The notes: a model not told the origin generated them from the sequence alone. A DNA stretch of 11,380 nt from Escherichia coli (GCF_003334255.1 NZ_QOWU01000083.1), one strand, 5' to 3'. Counted from the stretch's first letter, positions 3,608 to 11,380 are shown. Made by a program: numbers and translations.

Positions 3608-3772
3608 TGGTGTTTTTTTGGTGTGTGTTTGGGTATGTTTTGGGTTTTAAGTGGGTTTGTTTGTCAAGTTTACCCCATTTCAACCATCAATCAATGATTA
3701 TTTGTCTTGTTTTGGTGTTTTATTGGGTTGGGTATGGGTTGTTTTTGGGTTTTGTTTGGCGGGTAACAAAAG
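3608..3772 (-). promoter_or_regulatory. parC: parC centromere/promoter region: two blocks of about five 11-bp iterons flanking the parMR promoter
   Basis: 11-bp periodic T/G-rich repeats on the + strand (for example ttgggtatgtt, ttgggttttaa, gtgggtttgtt, then after a ~45-bp spacer ttgttttggtg, ttttattgggt, tgggtatgggt, tgtttttgggt, tttgtttggcg). The spacer, read on the minus strand, contains TTGATT-16 bp-TAAACT and TTGACA. Architecture matches established R1 parC (10 iterons around the promoter). Confidence 0.7.
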
Positions 3773-4108
3773 ATGTCGCCGGGCTCCTCTTTTTACTGCG
3801 CCGGCTGACGCGGCGCGGCAGGAACGCTGCCTGTGGTCAGTGTCCCGCGTCCGGCCGGGCACGGGACGGGCGCTTTTACCGCTCCCGGCTGGCGTTGGTG
3901 ACAGTGTACGCCAGCCCGTCGCCCTTTTCTGATGAACGCCCTTCAAGCCGCTTTCGCGGCATATCCTCGCCGTCAAAAAGACGACGGCTGCGGTATTCCA
4001 CGGTCGGCCTGACCCGTTACCGGACGCGGTGAACAGCCCACAGGCAGCGGGGAACGGGCACCACAGGGGTGCCCTCCCGGTGCCCTCTGTAAGAGAAGGA
4101 GTGCTGTT
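3773..4108 (+). promoter_or_regulatory. Long GC-rich untranslated leader upstream of the methyltransferase operon; candidate structured promoter/ssi-like element
   Basis: About 335 bp with no credible ORF (only overlapping R/P/G-rich frames on both strands). Shares the 13-mer TGAACAGCCCACA (4030-4042) with 8399-8411. Ends with RBS AAGGAG before ATG 4109. Confidence 0.3.
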
Positions 4109-4792
4109 ATGTCCCGTTTTATCCTGGGTGACTGCGTGCGTGTTATGGCCACGTTTCCGGGCAATGCTGTCGATTTCATCCTCACCGACCCGCCGTATCT
4201 CGTCGGTTTCCGTGACCGTTCCGGGCGCACCATCGCCGGCGATAAAACCGATGAATGGCTGCAACCAGCCTGTAATGAAATGTACCGCGTACTCAAAAAA
4301 GACGCGTTAATGGTGAGCTTCTATGGCTGGAACCGCGTCGATCGCTTTATGGCCGCCTGGAAAAATGCGGGATTCAGCGTTGTTGGTCACCTGGTCTTCA
4401 CCAAAAACTACACATCGAAGGCCGCATATGTGGGCTATCGCCACGAATGTGCCTACATCCTGGCAAAAGGCCGTCCACGTCTGCCACAAAACCCGCTGCC
4501 GGACGTGCTGGGCTGGAAATATTCGGGCAATCGCCATCACCCGACGGAAAAGCCCGTTACCAGCCTGCAACCGCTGATTGAGAGCTTCACACACCCGAAC
4601 GCAATTGTGCTGGACCCGTTTGCAGGCAGCGGCTCAACCTGCGTCGCCGCCCTCCAGTCCGGACGCCGGTATATCGGTATCGAGCTGCTTGAGCAGTATC
4701 ACCGTGCCGGGCAGCAACGCCTTGCCGCCGTGCAACGGGCCATGCAGCAGGGGGCCGCGAATGATGACTGGTTTATGCCGGAGGCTGCGTAA
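4109..4792 (+). CDS. Orphan DNA methyltransferase, N6-adenine/N4-cytosine beta class (PF01555-like)
   Basis: 227 aa. Motif IV DPPY near the N-terminus (LTDPPYLVG) and motif I near the C-terminus (VLDPFAGSGSTCVAA), the order typical of beta-class amino-methyltransferases. Good RBS AAGGAG before the ATG. No adjacent restriction endonuclease candidate. Confidence 0.85.
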   Translation: MSRFILGDCVRVMATFPGNAVDFILTDPPYLVGFRDRSGRTIAGDKTDEWLQPACNEMYRVLKKDALMVSFYGWNRVDRFMAAWKNAGFSVVGHLVFTKNYTSKAAYVGYRHECAYILAKGRPRLPQNPLPDVLGWKYSGNRHHPTEKPVTSLQPLIESFTHPNAIVLDPFAGSGSTCVAALQSGRRYIGIELLEQYHRAGQQRLAAVQRAMQQGAANDDWFMPEAA

Positions 4793-5027: not shown

Positions 5028-5462
5028 ATGTACGGAACATGCGAAACGCTATGCCGGGAGCTGGCAGTAAAGTATCCGGGAGACATGCCGCTGATGCTGG
5101 TTATCTGGTCCCCGGAAGAGATTCAGGCACTGGCTGACGGTATGGAAATTTCTCTGACCGGTCATGAAATCAGGACCGTCCTGGCACGCCTGGAGGACAT
5201 CCCGGAAGACCAGCGGATTGAGTCCGGTATTTCTTCCGCTGCGGTGATGGAGATTATCCGCAACGAGAGCGAAAACCGCCTGGTGACCGTCCCTGCTGAA
5301 CTGCTGGCGTCCCTGATTCAGACCGCTGAACAGGCATTGTGGAAACGTGAATGGGCCGCCCGGGATCATGGCCTCGCCGTCCCGGAATGCGTCACCCGCC
5401 GTCAGGAGGTGGTTAATCAGGCCCGCACCCTGCTGAAAAACAACACACACGAAAACGACTGA
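5028..5462 (+). CDS. Conserved plasmid protein of unknown function (144 aa; possibly DUF1380-like), paralog of 7179-7601
   Basis: RBS GAAGGAGACGAGAATG. Aligns by eye with the 7179-7601 product (MY.T...RE...SLT..E..TV..RL.D...RxVTVPA..L). The DUF name is recalled, not verified. Confidence 0.6.
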
Positions 5463-6289
5463 TGTTATCGCCGCCTGCCCTGCGGGCGGCGATACAGGGA
5501 GAACGCTTAATCATGAACGAAAACAGCACGCTGAACGCACTGATTTGTCGTCACGCCCGCAACCTGCTGCTGGCGCAGGGCTGGCCGGAAGAGACGGATG
5601 TTGACCAGCGTAACCCGAAGTATCCGGGCTGGATCAGCATTTATGTTCTGCTGGATGCGCCCCGGCTGGCGACGTTACTTATCAACCGTCACGGCGGCGT
5701 ACTGCCGCCGCTCCTGGCCTCCGCCATTCAGAAACTGACCGGAACCGGGGCGGAACTGGTACTGTCCGGCAGTCAGTGGCAGTCGCTGCCGGTACTTCCG
5801 GCAGACGGAACGCAGGTGTCTTTCCCGTATGCCGGAGAATGGCTGACCGAAGACGAAATCAGGGCTGTACTTGCGGCGGTGCGCGATGCGGTACGCAGTG
5901 TCAGTTGCCGGGTGGCAGAAGATGCGCGGCGTATCCGGGCGGCGCTGACCACCACCGGTCAGACGTTGCTGACTCGCCAGACGCGCCGCTTTCGTCTGGT
6001 TGTGAAGGAAAGCGATCACCCCTGCTGGCTCGATGAAGATGACGAAAACCTGCCCGTGGTGCTCGATGCCATCGTGAACCGGGGAGCACGTTTTTCGTCG
6101 GTGGAAATGTACCTGGTCAGCGATTGTATTGAGCATATCCTGTCCAGTGGGCTGGCCTGCGATGTGCTGCGTATACCGGATGAACCGCCCCGCCGCTGGT
6201 TTGACCGTGGTGTTCTGCGGGAGGTGGTCCGGGAAGCCCGGGCCGAAATCCGCAGCATGGCGGATGCCCTGGCAAAAATCCGGAAATGA
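5462..6289 (+). CDS. Hypothetical protein (275 aa; alternative start ATG 5513 giving 258 aa)
   Basis: ATG 5462 overlaps the upstream stop (TGATG). An internal ATG at 5513 has its own RBS (AGGGAGA). Long GC-rich ORF co-oriented with neighbours. No recognisable motif. Confidence 0.6.
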
Positions 6290-6706
6290 TGACGTTGGCG
6301 GGGTAAATCCCCGCCTTTTTCCTGCCGGTCCCCGGACAGAGCACAAAGGAAGTCGCCGCCGGCTCCGCTTTACCCGGCCATGCAGGGCATGGCCTTGTGG
6401 TTTTTCAGTTATGTGGCCTCAGCGTCGTGTGCGGGCTGTGCCGTGCCTCCATCTTAGCCGGGCTGGCAGGGATGCAAGGGTACGCTTCGCCGCTGCGGTC
6501 ACCCGGTCCCTCCTTCCCGTCTGCCGTGATTTTCCGGTCGTTCACCCGCTCAGATTTCGCGGTCTCACCCTCCAACTCCCGCCAGCCGTGTGCGTCAGGC
6601 TGCGGCTTCCCTTGCGCCCTGTGCATCCCCGCCTTATCGCCCGGCTTTTATGGAGGCACGGCACCGCCCGGTGTCGCGGAATATGTGAACAACGGAGGAA
6701 AACATC
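6290..6706 (+). promoter_or_regulatory. GC-rich about 415-bp untranslated region upstream of klcA; candidate structured promoter/ssi-like element
   Basis: No credible ORF (the 6129-6734 and 6397-6741 frames are R/C/W/P-rich and overlap). Ends with TGAACAACGGAGGAAAACATCATG (RBS GGAGGA before klcA ATG 6707). Confidence 0.3.
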
Positions 6707-7132
6707 ATGCAATATGCGAAACCTGTCACTCTGAACGTTGAAGAGTGCGACCGTCTCTCCTTTCTACCGTATCTGTTTGGCAACGATTTTCTGTATGCCG
6801 AGGCGTATGTGTACGCGCTGGCGCAAAAAATGATGCCGGAATATCAGGGAGGCTTCTGGCACTTCATCCGCCTGCCGGACGGTGGCGGTTACATGATGCC
6901 GGATGGCGACCGTTTCCACATGGTGAACGGTGCAAACTGGTTTGACCGTACCGTGAGTGCTGATGCCGCAGGCATCATTCTGACTTCCCTTGTGATTAAC
7001 CGCCAGTTGTGGCTGTACCACGACAGCGGGGATGCAGGACTGACCCAGCTTTACCGGATGCGCGATGCGCAGTTGTGGCGTCACATCGAATTTCACCCCG
7101 AATGCAACGCGATTTACGCGGCACTGGACTGA
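6707..7132 (+). CDS. klcA: KlcA/ArdB-family antirestriction protein
   Basis: 141 aa; ...[68 protein letters not shown]... matches my recollection of KlcA/ArdB (Antirestrict family) proteins on IncF/IncP/IncN plasmids. RBS GGAGGA 7 nt upstream. Confidence 0.85.
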
Positions 7133-7141
7133 TTAACGGAC

Positions 7142-7160
7142 GGGGCGGCAATGCCGCCCC
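7142..7160. other. Intercistronic GC hairpin (GGGGCGGC-AAT-GCCGCCCC) directly upstream of an RBS
   Basis: Perfect 8-bp GC stem with 3-nt loop, 10 nt after the klcA stop and immediately before AAAGGAGACGAGAACATG. No downstream T-run, so not a canonical intrinsic terminator. Confidence 0.5.
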
Positions 7161-7178
7161 TGTAAAGGAGACGAGAAC

Positions 7179-7601
7179 ATGTACTGTACTGTTAAAGAAA
7201 TTATCCGCGAAGTGCTGAACACAGACGTGCCGGACAGTGAATGCGTTTTTGCCGTGGTGCTGACCCGTGGGGATGTGCGTCACATAGCCCAGGACTGGAG
7301 TCTGACAGACGATGAGCTGGAAACCGTCATGCAGCGACTGGACGATGCCTTTGCGCATGGTGCGGATGTCAGCATTGTTCACGACGTTGTTCGTGAGCTG
7401 ATGGAAGAAAAGCGCGCCAGCCGTCAGGTGACAGTTCCGGCGGTGATGCTGGAAAAAGTGATGGCGCTGGCAGGCAGTGAAATGAAGCGCCTGTATGCCG
7501 TCGGGAGCGAGAACGGGGGCGACGGTGACGCATTCGTCAGGGAAGAACGCGAAGCAATGGACGTTGTGTTACAGGCGCTGGACGGGGAGCACATGTCATG
7601 A
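7179..7601 (+). CDS. Conserved plasmid protein of unknown function (140 aa; possibly DUF1380-like), paralog of 5028-5462
   Basis: RBS AAAGGAGACGAGAACATG nearly identical to that of 5028. Sequence similarity to the 5028 product along the whole length, including the shared VTVPA motif. Confidence 0.6.
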   Translation: MYCTVKEIIREVLNTDVPDSECVFAVVLTRGDVRHIAQDWSLTDDELETVMQRLDDAFAHGADVSIVHDVVRELMEEKRASRQVTVPAVMLEKVMALAGSEMKRLYAVGSENGGDGDAFVREEREAMDVVLQALDGEHMS

Positions 7602-7789
7602 ATATCAGCACAGAAACCCGCGAAATTCTGCGCAATTACAAAGCCGTGATTAATGCGCGGCGTCGTGAAATGGGGCAGAAACCGCTCACCACTGCGCAGA
7701 TTGTTGATGAAATCTGCGATTTTGTGGCGAATCAGCAGGCTGTATTCCTCGGCGGTCACTACATCCTTCAGGGCAGCATAAACAGGTGA
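7598..7789 (+). CDS. Hypothetical small protein (63 aa), translationally coupled (ATGA overlap)
   Basis: ATG 7598 overlaps the TGA of the upstream gene; co-oriented; no recognisable family. Confidence 0.45.
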   Translation: MNISTETREILRNYKAVINARRREMGQKPLTTAQIVDEICDFVANQQAVFLGGHYILQGSINR

Positions 7790-7957
7790 TACAGGGGCAG
7801 GCGGTGGAGGCCGCCTGTCAGCCCGCGCGAAAACCCCTGGCAGGCTGACGCCTGCCGGAAGGGAAGCGGGCCACGCTGGCGCGTCGCCCGTTACCCTTCC
7901 CGTCTGTGATGTGTCTGACTCAGGAGTGTTTCTTTCTTATGTTATGGAACTGTTCCT

Positions 7958-8058
7958 GATGTTGTTGTTCCTTTATCTACTGCTCTGATTCTGACTACTG
8001 CAGTGTTGTTCTGTCTGCCGGGCGCACCTTCGGCTCCCGGCTGCCTGGCGGCATCCGG
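7958..8058. repeat. Copy 1 of a repeated leading-region element (77-bp core with 1 mismatch to copy 2)
   Basis: Core 7982-8058 (GCTCTGATTCTGACTACTGCAGTGTTGTTCTGTCTGCCGGGCGCACCTTCGGCTCCCGGCTGCCTGGCGGCATCCGG) matches 11304-11380 with a single T/C difference. The upstream GATGTTGTTGTTCC (7958-7971) is also shared with 11247-11260. Confidence 0.6.
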
Positions 8059-8409
8059 TCGTCAGGCCCGACTCCGACAGGCAGCTGCTGGCGCACCTGC
8101 CAGTCTCCGCCGAACCCGCTGGCGCGGTTTCGGGCTGCCGCTACGGTCCGATGCGTGAAAACCCCTGGCTTGCAGCGACCGTTCCGGTCGCGCCGCCTCT
8201 GTCGCGCCGTGGCCTGCGCTCCCGGCATCCCGGCAAAAGGCCGCCGGGATGTAAGGGGCAACGCCGTTTCGCGCACGCGCTCTCCGTCGTTGCGGCGGGC
8301 CCCTGCTCATTGCCTGCCGGGTGCCACACACCCGTATGAGTCCCTGTCGCCGGGGGCTGATACAGCCACAACCTGCCGCACTGACTGTCCAGGGTAAATG
8401 AACAGCCCA

Positions 8410-8445
8410 CAAAATTTTTTACCCAAAACCCGGTAAAAAATTTTG
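8410..8445. repeat. Perfect 14-bp inverted repeat (CAAAATTTTTTACC / GGTAAAAAATTTTG) with 8-nt loop
   Basis: 8410-8423 and 8432-8445 are exact reverse complements; an AT-rich stem embedded in GC-rich DNA, immediately after the shared 13-mer TGAACAGCCCACA. Confidence 0.5.
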
Positions 8446-8729
8446 CGTTCTGCCCAGGACAGGTGCGTCAGGCCGTGGCAGTGATGCCCCTTGCGGCGAA
8501 GGTTCTCAAACGGGTGAAGTTCATACCACAGTGAATACAGCAGCAGGTTCCCGCGAAACGTCAAAACCGCGGCTCCCGAAACTCAACGGGTGATGTTCTT
8601 TAAAAATCAGGATTTATTTCAGGCTCCGGCAATACGCATTTATTTGTTCTGTCAGTCATCCGGCTGACAGGTAATGAGAACGCAGGAACAGAAGGAGGAA
8701 AACACCGGAAAGCGTCAGATGCAGATATG

Positions 8730-8753
8730 AAAAAAGCAGGTCAGGCACCTGCT
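8730..8753 (-). terminator. Terminator-like hairpin oriented for the minus strand (stem AGCAGGT/ACCTGCT, followed by T6 on the minus strand)
   Basis: On the + strand: AAAAAA-AGCAGGT-CAGGC-ACCTGCT. On the minus strand this is a 7-bp stem followed by TTTTTT. Located about 75 bp upstream of ATG 8827. Confidence 0.35.
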
Positions 8754-8826
8754 TAATCCACGCCGTAAGAATTGTGCGACCAATTTTGACGGCATTGTTA
8801 ACCAATTTGTCATAAGGAATCCATTT

Positions 8827-9057
8827 ATGACTGTAAGCATTGTTTCACCTTCCGCAGCGGCTGTAAAGCCCCGCCGTCATCCCCGTTTCAGACGCGAAGA
8901 CATCCCCACGCCGGAAATTGACCCCGTGTTGAAAGCCTTCGGGCGACACATAGCCCGGAGTTTTCACCGGGGGCGTGGTGTACACATCCCCGCCATGAAA
9001 AACACGGCTTTCGGGCAGGTGCTCCGCACACTCGAACTGAAACGCGCTTTTAACTGA
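8827..9057 (+). CDS. Hypothetical small basic protein (76 aa)
   Basis: ATG with AAGGA upstream; R/K/H-rich product; co-oriented and followed after 51 bp by the 453-aa gene. No recognisable family. Confidence 0.45.
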   Translation: MTVSIVSPSAAAVKPRRHPRFRREDIPTPEIDPVLKAFGRHIARSFHRGRGVHIPAMKNTAFGQVLRTLELKRAFN

Positions 9058-9065
9058 TGAGGTGA

Positions 9066-9085
9066 GCCGCCCCGCGAGGGGCGGC
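9066..9085. other. Intercistronic GC hairpin (GCCGCCCC-GCGA-GGGGCGGC) directly upstream of an RBS
   Basis: Same 8-bp stem sequence as the hairpin at 7142-7160; followed by AACAGACGGAAGGAGAACATTTTATG. Confidence 0.5.
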
Positions 9086-9108
9086 AACAGACGGAAGGAG
9101 AACATTTT

Positions 9109-10470
9109 ATGACATTAGCAGCAATCACCATGACCGCCCCGGAAGCCGCCAGCCCTGTGCAGATGTACCGCGCGACCTACTCACCGGATGACAACAAACT
9201 GCGCCTGTATGCCGTGTCACGTCTTGACCCGGAGACGTATAAAAAAGTGCATGATGCTGGTTTTCGCTGGGCACCAAAACAGGCGCTGTTTGTCGCGCCA
9301 GCCTGGACACCGGGCCGGGAAGACGTGCTCCTCTCACTTGCCGGAGAGATTGAGGATGAAGACAGCACGCTCGCTGAACGTCAGGAAGCACGGGCGGAGC
9401 GGTTTACCGGATACAGCGGAAAGCGGGCCAGTGAATCCGCACAGGCACTTGATGAAGTGGAAAGACTGGCCGCGATGATCCCGCCCGGTCAGCCCATTCT
9501 TGTGGGGCATCACAGCGAACGCCGCGCCCGTCGTGATGCGCAGCGTATTGAAAACGGCATGAAACGTGCCGTGATGCTCTTTGAACGTGCGGAATACTGG
9601 GAAGAGCGGGCGCGGTCGGCACTGCTTCACGCGAAGTATAAAGAACGTCCGGACGTTCGCTGGCGTCGTATCAAAAAAATCGAAGCTGATTTGCGCAAGG
9701 CTGAAAAGACCATCGCGCAGTCGCAGAAATATCTGACGATGTGGCGGGCTGAATCGCTGGATCTGAATATGGCAAAACTCATCAGCAGTCATGACCATAT
9801 CAGCGCCTGTTTCCCGCTGGATACGTATCCGCGCCCGGCAGAAAAAAGCCAGTATGAAGGGAGCCGGTCGTTATGGTCGGCCCTGGATGATGACATCATC
9901 ACCACGGAGCAGGCCCGCGAAATTGCGATCCGCTGTCATGAACGGCAGATTCAGCATCAGCAACGCTGGGTTAACCACTATCAGAACCGCCTGATCTATG
10001 AGCGTGCCATGCTGGACGAAAGCGGCGGCGTGGTTACCCGGACACAGGATTTTGAGCCGGGCGGACAGGTTTTCAGCCGGGGCGAGTGGCTGACCATCAT
10101 CCGCGTGAACAAAAGCAACGGGGCGGTGAGTTCAGTCACAACGCCGAATTACAGTTTTCTCGGGTACAGCGGCACGATGAAAGTGACGCCCGATCGCATC
10201 ACGGACTACAAAGCACCATCGGCAGAAGAGGCTGCCATCGCCAGCCAGGCCGCGAAGCGTCCGCCGGTAGTCAACTATCCGGGGGAAGGTTTCCGGGAAA
10301 TGACAAAGGCACAGTGGGCCGCCCTGCCCCGGGACTGTAAGGCCGTGCGCAGTGTGGCAGAAGCAGAAGACCACGGGGCATACCGCTACCGCCGCACAAT
10401 GGACAATAATTTCCGCCTGGTGAATGTGTATATCACCGACATGAAAATCACGGAAATCCCACAGAAATAA
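9109..10470 (+). CDS. Conserved plasmid protein of unknown function (453 aa; possibly the DUF3560 family, unverified)
   Basis: Strong RBS AAGGAGA; long ORF with GC-rich codon usage. Central region is highly charged (R/E/K-rich, probably helical). No catalytic motif recognised by eye. Confidence 0.7.
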   Translation: MTLAAITMTAPEAASPVQMYRATYSPDDNKLRLYAVSRLDPETYKKVHDAGFRWAPKQALFVAPAWTPGREDVLLSLAGEIEDEDSTLAERQEARAERFTGYSGKRASESAQALDEVERLAAMIPPGQPILVGHHSERRARRDAQRIENGMKRAVMLFERAEYWEERARSALLHAKYKERPDVRWRRIKKIEADLRKAEKTIAQSQKYLTMWRAESLDLNMAKLISSHDHISACFPLDTYPRPAEKSQYEGSRSLWSALDDDIITTEQAREIAIRCHERQIQHQQRWVNHYQNRLIYERAMLDESGGVVTRTQDFEPGGQVFSRGEWLTIIRVNKSNGAVSSVTTPNYSFLGYSGTMKVTPDRITDYKAPSAEEAAIASQAAKRPPVVNYPGEGFREMTKAQWAALPRDCKAVRSVAEAEDHGAYRYRRTMDNNFRLVNVYITDMKITEIPQK

Positions 10471-10475
10471 GGTAT

Positions 10476-10501
10476 ATCCCCCCGGGAAATCCCCGGGGGA
10501 T
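10476..10501. other. Intercistronic GC stem-loop (ATCCCCC...GGGGGAT) between the 453-aa gene and the downstream methyltransferase
   Basis: 10476-10482 ATCCCCC pairs with 10495-10501 GGGGGAT; the loop contains the palindrome CCCGGG. Followed by RBS GGAGA and ATG 10517. Confidence 0.45.
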
Positions 10502-10516
10502 GACGGAGATAATGAC

Positions 10517-11080
10517 ATGCACAGTCAGTTAAGAGAACGTATCCGGCTGATGCGCGCAAGGCTGGATAACGCCGCGCCGGTTGCTGAAATCCGGGCTGAA
10601 TCTCAGCTTTTTGTGACTCCTGCCCCGGTCTGTGATCGCCTGGTGACGCTGGCGGAAATCAGCAACCGTGATCACATTCTGGAACCCTCTGCCGGCACCG
10701 GGGCCATACTGCGGGCGATTCGGGATACCGCGCCGGAGGCCATGTGTGATGCGGTGGAGATTAACAGCGGGCTGGTCCGGTATCTGCGGGAAAATTTTAA
10801 CGGTGTCAGGGTACAGTGTGGCGACTTCATGGAATGGCAGCCGGTGCAGTATTACAGCCGGATCATTATGAATCCGCCGTTCAGTCACGGGCAGGATATC
10901 CGGCATATCCTGCGGGCTTTTTCCCTGTTGCGTCCGGGGGGCGTGCTGGTTGCCGTCTGTCTCAACGGGCCGCGCCAGCAGGAGAAGCTGTTACCGTTTT
11001 CTGACGTCCGCGAGGAGCTGCCGCGCGGCACGTTTGCTTATACCGATGTCCCGACGATGATTATTCGTTTGCGTGCCTGA
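10517..11080 (+). CDS. Small class I SAM-dependent methyltransferase with amino-methyltransferase NPPF motif (putative orphan DNA or RNA methyltransferase)
   Basis: 187 aa. Motif I-like LEPSAGTGAIL followed about 55 residues later by IMNPPFS (the (D/N)PP(F/Y) motif IV), i.e. a gamma-like order. Too short for a separate target-recognition domain. RBS GGAGA 7 nt upstream. Confidence 0.75.
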   Translation: MHSQLRERIRLMRARLDNAAPVAEIRAESQLFVTPAPVCDRLVTLAEISNRDHILEPSAGTGAILRAIRDTAPEAMCDAVEINSGLVRYLRENFNGVRVQCGDFMEWQPVQYYSRIIMNPPFSHGQDIRHILRAFSLLRPGGVLVAVCLNGPRQQEKLLPFSDVREELPRGTFAYTDVPTMIIRLRA

Positions 11081-11246
11081 TGACACAGGGCTGGCGGGAG
11101 GATAAATGCCCGTCTGTCCGCACCGGGAAAAGACCGCGCGCCGGTGGCGCTGAAAGGGGCCGCGCTCACGCGCCGCCCCTTTCATTACGCGGACGTTCTG
11201 ATGGGGGCTTCTGTCTTTTCAGACCTGTCATTTGTCTGTTACTGAT

Positions 11247-11380
11247 GATGTTGTTGTTCCTGCTACTGCTACTGCTACTGCTACTGCTCTTCTTTTTCCT
11301 GCCGCTCTGATTCTGACTACTGCAGTGTTGTCCTGTCTGCCGGGCGCACCTTCGGCTCCCGGCTGCCTGGCGGCATCCGG
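11247..11380. repeat. Copy 2 of the repeated leading-region element, truncated by the window end; contains a (TGCTAC)4-5 microsatellite insertion relative to copy 1
   Basis: 11304-11380 matches 7982-8058 (76/77). Between the shared GATGTTGTTGTTCC and the core there are tandem hexamers TGCTAC x4 plus TGCTC (11261-11289) that are absent from copy 1. Confidence 0.6.

Follow-up and report, generated by a model that had tools for sequence, protein, structure and literature searches.

The DNA examined here, an 11,380-nt stretch from Escherichia coli (NZ_QOWU01000083.1; hereafter the window, with positions counted from its first nucleotide), corresponds to the leading region of the IncF plasmid R1 (100% identity with NZ_KY749247.1), and nearly all gaps between its genes are occupied by short GC-rich hairpins placed between the stop codon of one gene and the Shine-Dalgarno sequence (SD) of the next. 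The hairpins hold a fixed position, are specific to the leading region, are conserved in structure, have no U-tracts and show a bias of their loops towards the sense strand. These features are consistent with intercistronic stem-loops that would protect and insulate the messenger RNA (mRNA) of operons driven from single-stranded DNA (ssDNA) promoters, a reading that we put forward tentatively, at somewhat less than an even chance.

The original prediction had placed three hairpins immediately 5' of an SD, and all three, named H1 to H3, were recovered at the same coordinates on the plus strand. H1 (7142-7160; GGGGCGGC-AAT-GCCGCCCC, 8 bp) lies between the antirestriction gene yubI (KlcA/ArdB-like; 6707-7132, plus strand, stop codon 7130-7132) and a second DUF1380 gene (7179-7601, plus strand), whose SD (AAGGAG, 7165-7170) starts 5 nt past the hairpin and precedes the ATG at 7179-7181. 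H2 (9066-9085; GCCGCCCC-GCGA-GGGGCGGC, 8 bp with a GNRA loop) separates ydaB (8827-9057, plus strand, stop codon 9055-9057), the first gene of the operon holding H2 and H3, from a DUF3560 gene (9109-10470, plus strand) with its SD GGAAGGAG at 9093-9100, in a block (AACCGCAGGAAGGAGAAAA) conserved across plasmids, and its ATG at 9109-9111. H3 (10476-10501) is imperfect (ATCCCCCCGGG-AAAT-CCCCGGGGGAT; core at 10479-10499, CCCCCGGG-AAATC-CCCGGGGG) and falls between the DUF3560 stop codon (10468-10470) and a class I SAM methyltransferase gene (10517-11080, plus strand), with the SD GGAG at 10505-10508 and the ATG at 10517-10519. All or most of the stem pairs are G:C. Compared with 200 dinucleotide shuffles, the junctions of H1 (-18.4 kcal/mol, z = -3.15, 1/200 shuffles as good) and H2 (-22.1 kcal/mol, z = -4.24, 0/200) fold strongly, and that of H3 (-21.0 kcal/mol, z = -1.96, 6/200) is, taken alone, only marginal.

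The prediction had drawn attention to an identical 8-bp stem in two of the hairpins. The octamer GGGGCGGC does occur five times in the window, against 0.56 expected and with none of 200 shuffles reaching five, and H1 and H2 share it together with its complement; the arms, however, stand in swapped order, and since the reverse complement of a perfect hairpin retains the order of its arms, H2 cannot be a copy of H1, direct or inverted. With the arms swapped and the sequence space of an all-GC 8-bp stem small, the shared stem is a weak argument for function. The list of three junctions also proved short, as hairpins of the same kind were found on the plus strand at 4056-4074 (GGGCACC-ACAGG-GGTGCCC, within a longer stem spanning 4043-4084 of which it forms the core; z = -2.90), between a small hypothetical gene (3739-4032, plus strand) and a DNA methylase gene (4109-4792, plus strand), and at 5466-5494 (TATCGCCGCCTGC-CCT-GCGGGCGGCGATA; z = -3.37), between ycgB (DUF1380; 5028-5462, plus strand) and a gene for a 258-aa protein (5513-6289, plus strand). 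Three more lie in R1 past the window, at the junctions of ssb with yfjA (DUF905), of yfjA with yfjB (ParB-like) and of yfjB with psiB.

None of H1, H2 and H3 is flanked by a T-run on either strand or was called in a terminator scan of the window, no promoter-like site was called at them in a promoter scan, and no Rfam family matched them, the sole match in the window being to an antisense RNA elsewhere. Like intrinsic terminators, the hairpins have a GC-rich stem of 7-13 bp and a loop of 3-7 nt and follow a stop codon, but they have no U-tract and are succeeded within 12-25 nt (15-23 nt for H1 to H3) by an SD and another gene on the same strand; they are therefore not intrinsic terminators, as had been predicted. 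In contrast, the operon-end hairpin at 6297-6315 (plus strand, GGCGGGG-TAAAT-CCCCGCC followed by TTTTTCC), just past the gene ending at 6289, was called terminator-like by the scan and retains its T-run in homologues. The operon-end hairpins after hok and after a DUF932 gene have T-runs as well, as do their relatives, indicating that these plasmids use real terminators where transcription should end.

The distribution of the hairpins within R1 is uneven. A strong hairpin (-14.1 to -30.3 kcal/mol) was present in 8/8 same-strand leading-region gaps of 46-76 nt, compared with 0 to -14.4 kcal/mol in 17 comparable gaps elsewhere in the plasmid, tra operon included (Mann-Whitney p = 6e-5), and junctions at which genes abut or overlap had none. 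Over the 97.6 kb of R1, 22 of the 45 perfect GC-rich hairpins fall within the ~13-kb leading region.

When single genomes of each species were scanned with a DUF3560 alignment, syntenic, diverged leading regions (40-88% protein identity) were obtained from Klebsiella grimontii, Raoultella, Enterobacter, Entomohabitans, Citrobacter, Cedecea, Hafnia, Buttiauxella, Erwinia and Pantoea. Among at least 5000 PLSDB records matching the antirestriction protein, IncF plasmids predominated to the point that no diversity was gained, and a psiB search for an IncI1 plasmid led to a further IncF plasmid. Generality was assessed in 18 diverged enterobacterial regions (11 + 7). Hairpins of -12 kcal/mol or lower occupied 53/70 gaps of 30-90 nt in the first 11 loci, whereas 38/210 length-matched coding windows (18%) contained one (Fisher p = 3e-18); in the 7 further loci, for which independent gene calls were made, a hairpin was found in 46/50 gaps of 21-100 nt. 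The placement was regular, with medians of 7 nt past the stop codon and 17 nt before the start codon in a median gap of 50 nt. The 3' tails are purine-rich, corresponding to the SD, with a mean of 1.3 T per 8 nt and five or more T in only 1/49. Hairpins occupy the corresponding position at homologous junctions, their stem sequences and loops being different. Of 5426 complete E. coli genomes, 2875 had the H2 junction, which is unannotated and almost always plasmid-borne (3300 plasmid vs 27 chromosomal places; median of one per genome).

That the structure of the hairpins is under selection is supported by compensatory change and by the retention of their position in diverged plasmids. In a covariance-model alignment of 15 H3 homologues, which is fitted to the model and somewhat favours structure, 94.1% of the cells were paired and five of nine pairs had changed on both sides; this alignment was used instead of a MAFFT alignment that placed some 3' arms out of register. 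The covariation score was reached by 0/500 shuffles, and slid controls paired at 64% or less. H1 is retained in five of the related loci (L005, L011, L012, L160 and L164) and shows a compensatory change of C:G to T:A in L007 (GGGGCGGT...ACCGCCCC), and the junction carries a different hairpin, further downstream, in L009 and L010. The H2 stem was invariant in 12 plasmids, with GCGA, GGGA, TGTC or TCAA as the loop, and is uninformative on covariation; unrelated hairpins occupy its place in L014 and in L086/L131. A compensatory change was also seen in IncF variants of the hairpin at 4056-4074 (GGGCGCC...GGCGCCC), and homologues of the 5466-5494 junction have other stems (CACGCCGC..., ATCGCCCCGC...), often with UNCG loops. 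In Enterobacterales the DUF3560 and methyltransferase genes are separate, with H3 in the 46-nt gap between them; in beta- and alpha-proteobacterial and other distant relatives (many of the loci L022-L072) the two form a single open reading frame (ORF), with both matches in frame, for example, at 5432-7387 of L020 and 125-2104 of L021.

Variation within the IncF population was assessed in 80 metagenome contigs (L076-L155), which were found with a ParB-like alignment and are 94-100% identical, so that they report on population variation only. It lies mostly in loops and flanks, and the hairpin after ssb shows one compensatory pair (GCCCCG/CGGGGC to GCCCCA/TGGGGC). At the yfjA-yfjB junction the stem GCCGGACG/CGTCCGGC is invariant but for one substituted base in one contig, six forms of the loop occur, and the 30 nt from the hairpin to the ParB-like start occur in at least four unrelated versions, so that the hairpin forms a sharp border between a conserved and a mosaic segment.

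Clustering of the 7-bp cores revealed identical cores at non-homologous junctions in only two cases among 98 distinct cores, and a family of hairpins spread by copy and paste was rejected on this ground; other repeated cores belong to paralogous elements resembling the ssDNA promoter Frpo. One case is L012 (Citrobacter werkmanii), in which an identical 19-nt hairpin (GGGGCGGCGATGCCGCCCC) occurs at 7074-7092 and 7559-7577 with differing flanks, one copy shortly before each member of a tandem pair of DUF1380 paralogues whose protein sequences have diverged strongly. The other is L070 (Candidatus Erwinia dacicola), in which a hairpin (GCCGCCCCGCGAGGGGCGGC) ~8-27 nt past the ParB-like stop codon, which ends at 14660, is identical in stem and loop to R1 H2; it sits at the junction of the ParB-like gene with psiB, whereas H2 sits between ydaB and the DUF3560 gene. 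This identity could mean that one very stable hairpin was reached by convergence, or that it was transferred.

The type of loop is the sole asymmetric signal of the strand on which the hairpins act. Among 95 distinct hairpin cores, 38 have tetraloops, and 15 of these are GNRA or UNCG on the mRNA-sense strand, with one such loop on the antisense strand and ~1.8 expected by chance (binomial p = 5e-4, uncorrected for sequence kinship). GNRA and UNCG loops are specially stable in RNA, and to our knowledge their complements (TYNC and CGNA) are not stable classes of DNA loop. The enrichment of such tetraloops on the sense strand points to a role in RNA, a conclusion in which we place moderate confidence.

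R1 continues beyond the window with ssb, yfjA, yfjB, psiB, psiA and hok, followed by an SLT gene and traM. Because oriT lies to the right of the window, the transferred strand would be the window minus strand, which would serve as the template for the leading-region genes, as judged by the order of the genes and by knowledge of F-like plasmids. Homologous genes in F and in the IncI plasmid pESBL form few operons that are strongly induced early after transfer from large ssDNA promoters, and ssb, yfjA, yfjB and psiB are co-induced in F; on the basis of annotation and of the published RNA-seq of F and pESBL, the gene runs of R1 that hold the hairpins, in which terminators are lacking, are probably operons too.

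In the proposed mechanism, the leading-region genes would be transcribed early after transfer as a few operons from the transferred strand, and in each gap of ~45-60 nt the plus-strand transcript would fold into a GC hairpin of 8-13 bp between the stop codon and the SD. Such a hairpin would block 3'-to-5' exonucleases (PNPase, RNase II) and so protect the upstream cistron after a cut or an end downstream; after a cut between the stop codon and the hairpin, the structured 5' end would shield the downstream cistron from 5'-end-dependent RNase E; and the adjacent SD would be kept out of long-range pairing. Since the U-tract that makes a terminator is absent, transcription would continue through the hairpin, and each cistron of a short transcriptional burst would become a separately stabilised unit without transcription being stopped. 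The placement suits protection of both 3' and 5' ends and would leave termination and translation initiation free, and the geometry, after the stop codon and before the SD, fits translation.

The dedicated function that had been suspected of the hairpins agrees with their presence in nearly every leading-region gap of 40-80 nt, their absence from comparable gaps elsewhere in R1 and their compensatory upkeep. In the proposed search of the rest of the plasmid and of E. coli genomes, strong GC hairpins clustered in the R1 leading region and H2 was nearly always plasmid-borne, and the hairpins, whose non-conservation among homologous plasmids had been named as evidence to the contrary, were kept in diverged leading regions. 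Of the three functions originally offered (mRNA stabilisation or processing, a REP-like element, additional hairpins on the transferred strand), the first fits best, given the position between stop codon and SD and the restriction of GNRA and UNCG loops almost entirely to the sense strand, and would be the probable function among the three.

Several known systems resemble the hairpins. RNase III sites of the phage T7 type, which have ~20 bp or more of double-stranded RNA and often an internal loop, were rejected, as stems of 8-13 bp are too short. Similar in form are highly stable hairpins between the cistrons of phage T4 mRNAs, C(UUCG)G and the like, which Tuerk et al. reportedly described in 1988; they likewise have short GC stems and UNCG or GNRA loops and occupy gene gaps of an invading element expressed in a burst, but they belong to another replicon, differ in sequence and are not known to have been described as a rule for every junction. 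The Frpo/ssi ssDNA promoters of F-like and IncI plasmids are hairpins of the same region, also tied to the single-stranded stage of transfer, but they were rejected as an explanation: their stem-loops span ~100 nt or more (a 300-nt folding window served to mine them), restore the -35 and -10 boxes of a promoter and stand upstream of operons, whereas the hairpins described here are 17-29 nt long, lie inside operons and have no promoter boxes. The nearest kind is that of the intercistronic protective stem-loops or 'decay terminators', such as the protective 3' structures of malE-malF and of the Rhodobacter puf operon and the structured 5' end made by RNase E in papBA, which reshape operon expression and are common and conserved in E. 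coli operons, with several possible in one operon, as in menBCE (Dar and Sorek 2018). Like them, the R1 hairpins lie at cistron boundaries within what is probably one transcript, are stable, have no U-tract and are conserved in structure in related replicons. They differ in that they always lie in the non-coding spacer, whereas most protective structures of E. coli lie inside the next coding region (Dar and Sorek 2018), and in that they fill nearly every gap of early operons driven from ssDNA promoters on a conjugative plasmid. In the published literature we found large ssDNA promoters described and no mention of the small intercistronic hairpins, older work on the F leading region being thinly covered, so that an early mention is possible. 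The kind is thus a known one, and its systematic, conserved use at nearly every junction of F-like early operons appears undescribed.

Several observations weigh against a protective role in mRNA. The H2 stem is invariant even though the flanking proteins are only 62-84% identical, which hints at a constraint on sequence beyond pairing alone. The loop bias falls to 7 vs 1 when counted by distinct loop sequences, as related sequences are not independent. A first count of wobble pairs favoured the plus strand and was set aside as biased, since the hairpins had been found by plus-strand folding; in a symmetric test of G:U against A:C, the plus and the minus strand each folded better in 25 junctions, and the non-Watson-Crick pairs numbered 15 G:T vs 20 A:C. 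The transferred (minus) strand also folds as DNA (-11 to -12 kcal/mol, z = -2.2 to -4.6). In distant taxa hairpins occurred in 36% of gaps vs 27% of controls (p = 0.40), showing no general enrichment, and the rule is claimed for enterobacterial leading regions only. Finally, mRNA stabilisation alone does not explain why the hairpins are restricted to ssDNA-promoter operons and why the long tra operon is bare.

Some of these points favour a role on the transferred ssDNA (the window minus strand), in which the hairpins would be obstacles or landmarks for complementary-strand synthesis, would affect the loading of SSB or RecA, or would be recognised by a hairpin-binding factor; we regard this as unlikely. 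The hairpins occur only where the plasmid is expressed and handled in single-stranded form, most are perfect palindromes that fold on the minus strand too, and the even wobble counts are compatible with such a role. Nevertheless, an 8-bp hairpin is a weak obstacle compared with stems of ~100 nt, the enrichment of stable RNA tetraloops is limited to the sense strand (15 vs 1), and neither the placement between stop codon and SD nor the lack of hairpins in other non-coding stretches would be explained. A 2026 preprint in which a large stem-loop of an ssDNA promoter in F stalls complementary-strand synthesis and prolongs early expression makes the idea more plausible.

Two further accounts are, in our estimate, rather unlikely. 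According to the first, the hairpins would stabilise pauses of RNA polymerase that are released by the terminating ribosome of the upstream gene, re-synchronising transcription and translation and preventing Rho-dependent polarity. A hairpin ~7 nt past the stop codon is within reach of that ribosome, the next SD would emerge just after it, a pause instead of termination is expected where the U-tract is missing, and the loop bias fits any role in RNA; yet the tra operon manages without such sites, and by sequence this account makes the same predictions as a barrier to decay.

The second, to which we give a similarly slim chance, sees in the hairpins a module dedicated to the junctions within the early 'establishment' operons that conjugative elements carry, with a function tied to the single-stranded state. 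The palindromes would fold in the nascent RNA and in the ssDNA template alike, and hairpins in ribosome-free gaps might stop the transcript from re-annealing to its template, or might be read by a hairpin-specific factor, which would explain their restriction to ssDNA-promoter operons. The layout of a Bradyrhizobium island fits this account. In this 21-kb locus (L040, Bradyrhizobium sp. Tv2a-2, NZ_AXAI01000008.1), which carries a DUF3560-methyltransferase gene, the motif TTCGCAG occurs 20 times (for example at 3917, 6332, 9542, 12564, 15603 and 16746), always on the gene-sense strand, with 4.0 expected on both strands. In seventeen copies the motif is a hairpin loop, on stems of 4-12 bp that vary between the copies; each follows a stop codon, and 2-15 nt further on comes a CAAGGAGACCA block with hardly any variation, succeeded by an ATG, making a standardised junction of conserved-loop hairpin and SD in every gene gap. 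An NCBIfam scan of the proteins of this locus gave no useful gene names.

That the hairpins are weak or conditional terminators (attenuators), grading expression down each operon, seems improbable. Their stems and loops resemble the hairpin part of a terminator, E. coli terminators often have GNRA or UUCG loops, and the position after stop codons would suit; the tails, on the other hand, are purine-rich, with 1.3 T per 8 nt and a T-run in 1/49, the same plasmids have proper T-runs at their operon ends, and in F the induction of ssb extends to yfjA, yfjB and psiB, all of them downstream genes.

It is decidedly improbable that the hairpins serve as boundaries of gene modules, that is, as sites of gain, loss or swap in a mosaic leading region, with any effect on RNA being secondary. 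Consistent with such boundaries, L005 has no DUF1380 gene and diverges from R1 right after H1 and the SD, L012 has its identical 19-nt hairpin before each of two diverged tandem paralogues, the invariant IncF stem between the DUF905 and ParB-like genes is followed by at least four unrelated sequences, the junction of hypB with the DUF1380 gene occurs both with a hairpin (~45-50 nt) and without one (13 nt), and R1 H2 recurs exactly at another junction in L070. Break-points are, however, tolerated at gene boundaries anyway, identical hairpins at non-homologous junctions are rare (2 among 98 distinct cores), they are accompanied by neither a recombinase nor a conserved motif in the flanks, and the compensatory upkeep of the stems would be unexplained.

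Repetitive extragenic palindromic (REP) elements, alone or in bacterial interspersed mosaic elements (BIMEs), are likewise extragenic, GC-rich palindromes, some of which stabilise upstream mRNA, but a REP-like origin, as had been proposed, or a functionless one by chance is hardly credible even with an octamer common to H1 and H2, since the hairpins are not dispersed but single-copy, position-specific and plasmid-borne (one H2 junction per plasmid and almost none chromosomal), vary in stem, loop and flanks where REPs follow a consensus of ~35 nt with conserved flanks, and show covariation and a very strong enrichment over controls.

In the left part of the window parM and parR lie on the minus strand, and they are followed on the plus strand by the small hypothetical gene, the DNA methylase gene, a yubE-like gene, ycgB, the 258-aa gene, yubI, the second DUF1380 gene, ydaB, the DUF3560 gene and the methyltransferase gene. 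A perfect 19-bp inverted repeat (ATTGAGTTCCCTTTATCCA / TGGATAAAGGGAACTCAAT) with a 9-nt spacer at 2220-2266 adjoins the 3' end of the minus-strand parR-like gene (2277-2627). Upstream of ydaB lies a long structured non-coding region (7790-8826), one of three paralogous regions in R1 with common blocks (GCGACCGTTCCGGTCGC and CATCCCGGCAAAA..GCCGGGATG, three occurrences each, at R1 49529/49580, 52851/52902 and 58247/58298); they sit upstream of ydaB, of ssb and of the last leading operon, and the parts within the window are 7790-8826 and 11330-11380. Judging by their position, they are presumably ssDNA promoters of the Frpo/ssi type. An element of ~90 nt (...ccctccggctcCCCGGCGTTGCCGGGtcgtcagccccactgcgctaaccggc...) resembling part of these regions occurs in at least eight copies within 21 kb of a Pantoea agglomerans plasmid (L016, at 7883, 9552, 12288, 13187, 16604, 17586, 19321 and 21266) and also in L017-L019, which suggests a repeat like an ssDNA promoter before many genes or small operons. 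An annotated 76-aa ORF (11080-11310) between the methyltransferase stop codon and the second structured region contains strong hairpins at 11088-11119 and 11151-11184 and may not be a gene. The Rfam match is to AS-pc01 ('Antisense to pHK01_035') on the minus strand at 8731-8832 (E = 1.4e-11; 73.1 bits, slightly below the gathering score of 79). The match extends over the beginning of ydaB (8827), and the same strand offers it a promoter-like site (8867-8839) as well as a terminator-like hairpin (8754-8734), the latter with a T-run.

The genes of the leading region, for anti-restriction, SOS inhibition, SSB and methyltransferases, decide whether a resistance plasmid becomes established in a new host. 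Their proteins are made in a brief burst from ssDNA promoters, and current work covers how the burst starts and stops and not how much of each protein is obtained from one transcript. A hairpin at nearly every gene boundary constitutes an unannotated layer of expression on plasmids found in about half of the complete E. coli genomes. It also provides a rule for annotation, by which a stop codon followed by a GC hairpin without a T-run and a strong SD marks an internal junction, as distinguished from the end of an operon. If the cistrons are indeed stabilised or insulated as proposed, the hairpins would set the dose of the anti-defence proteins.

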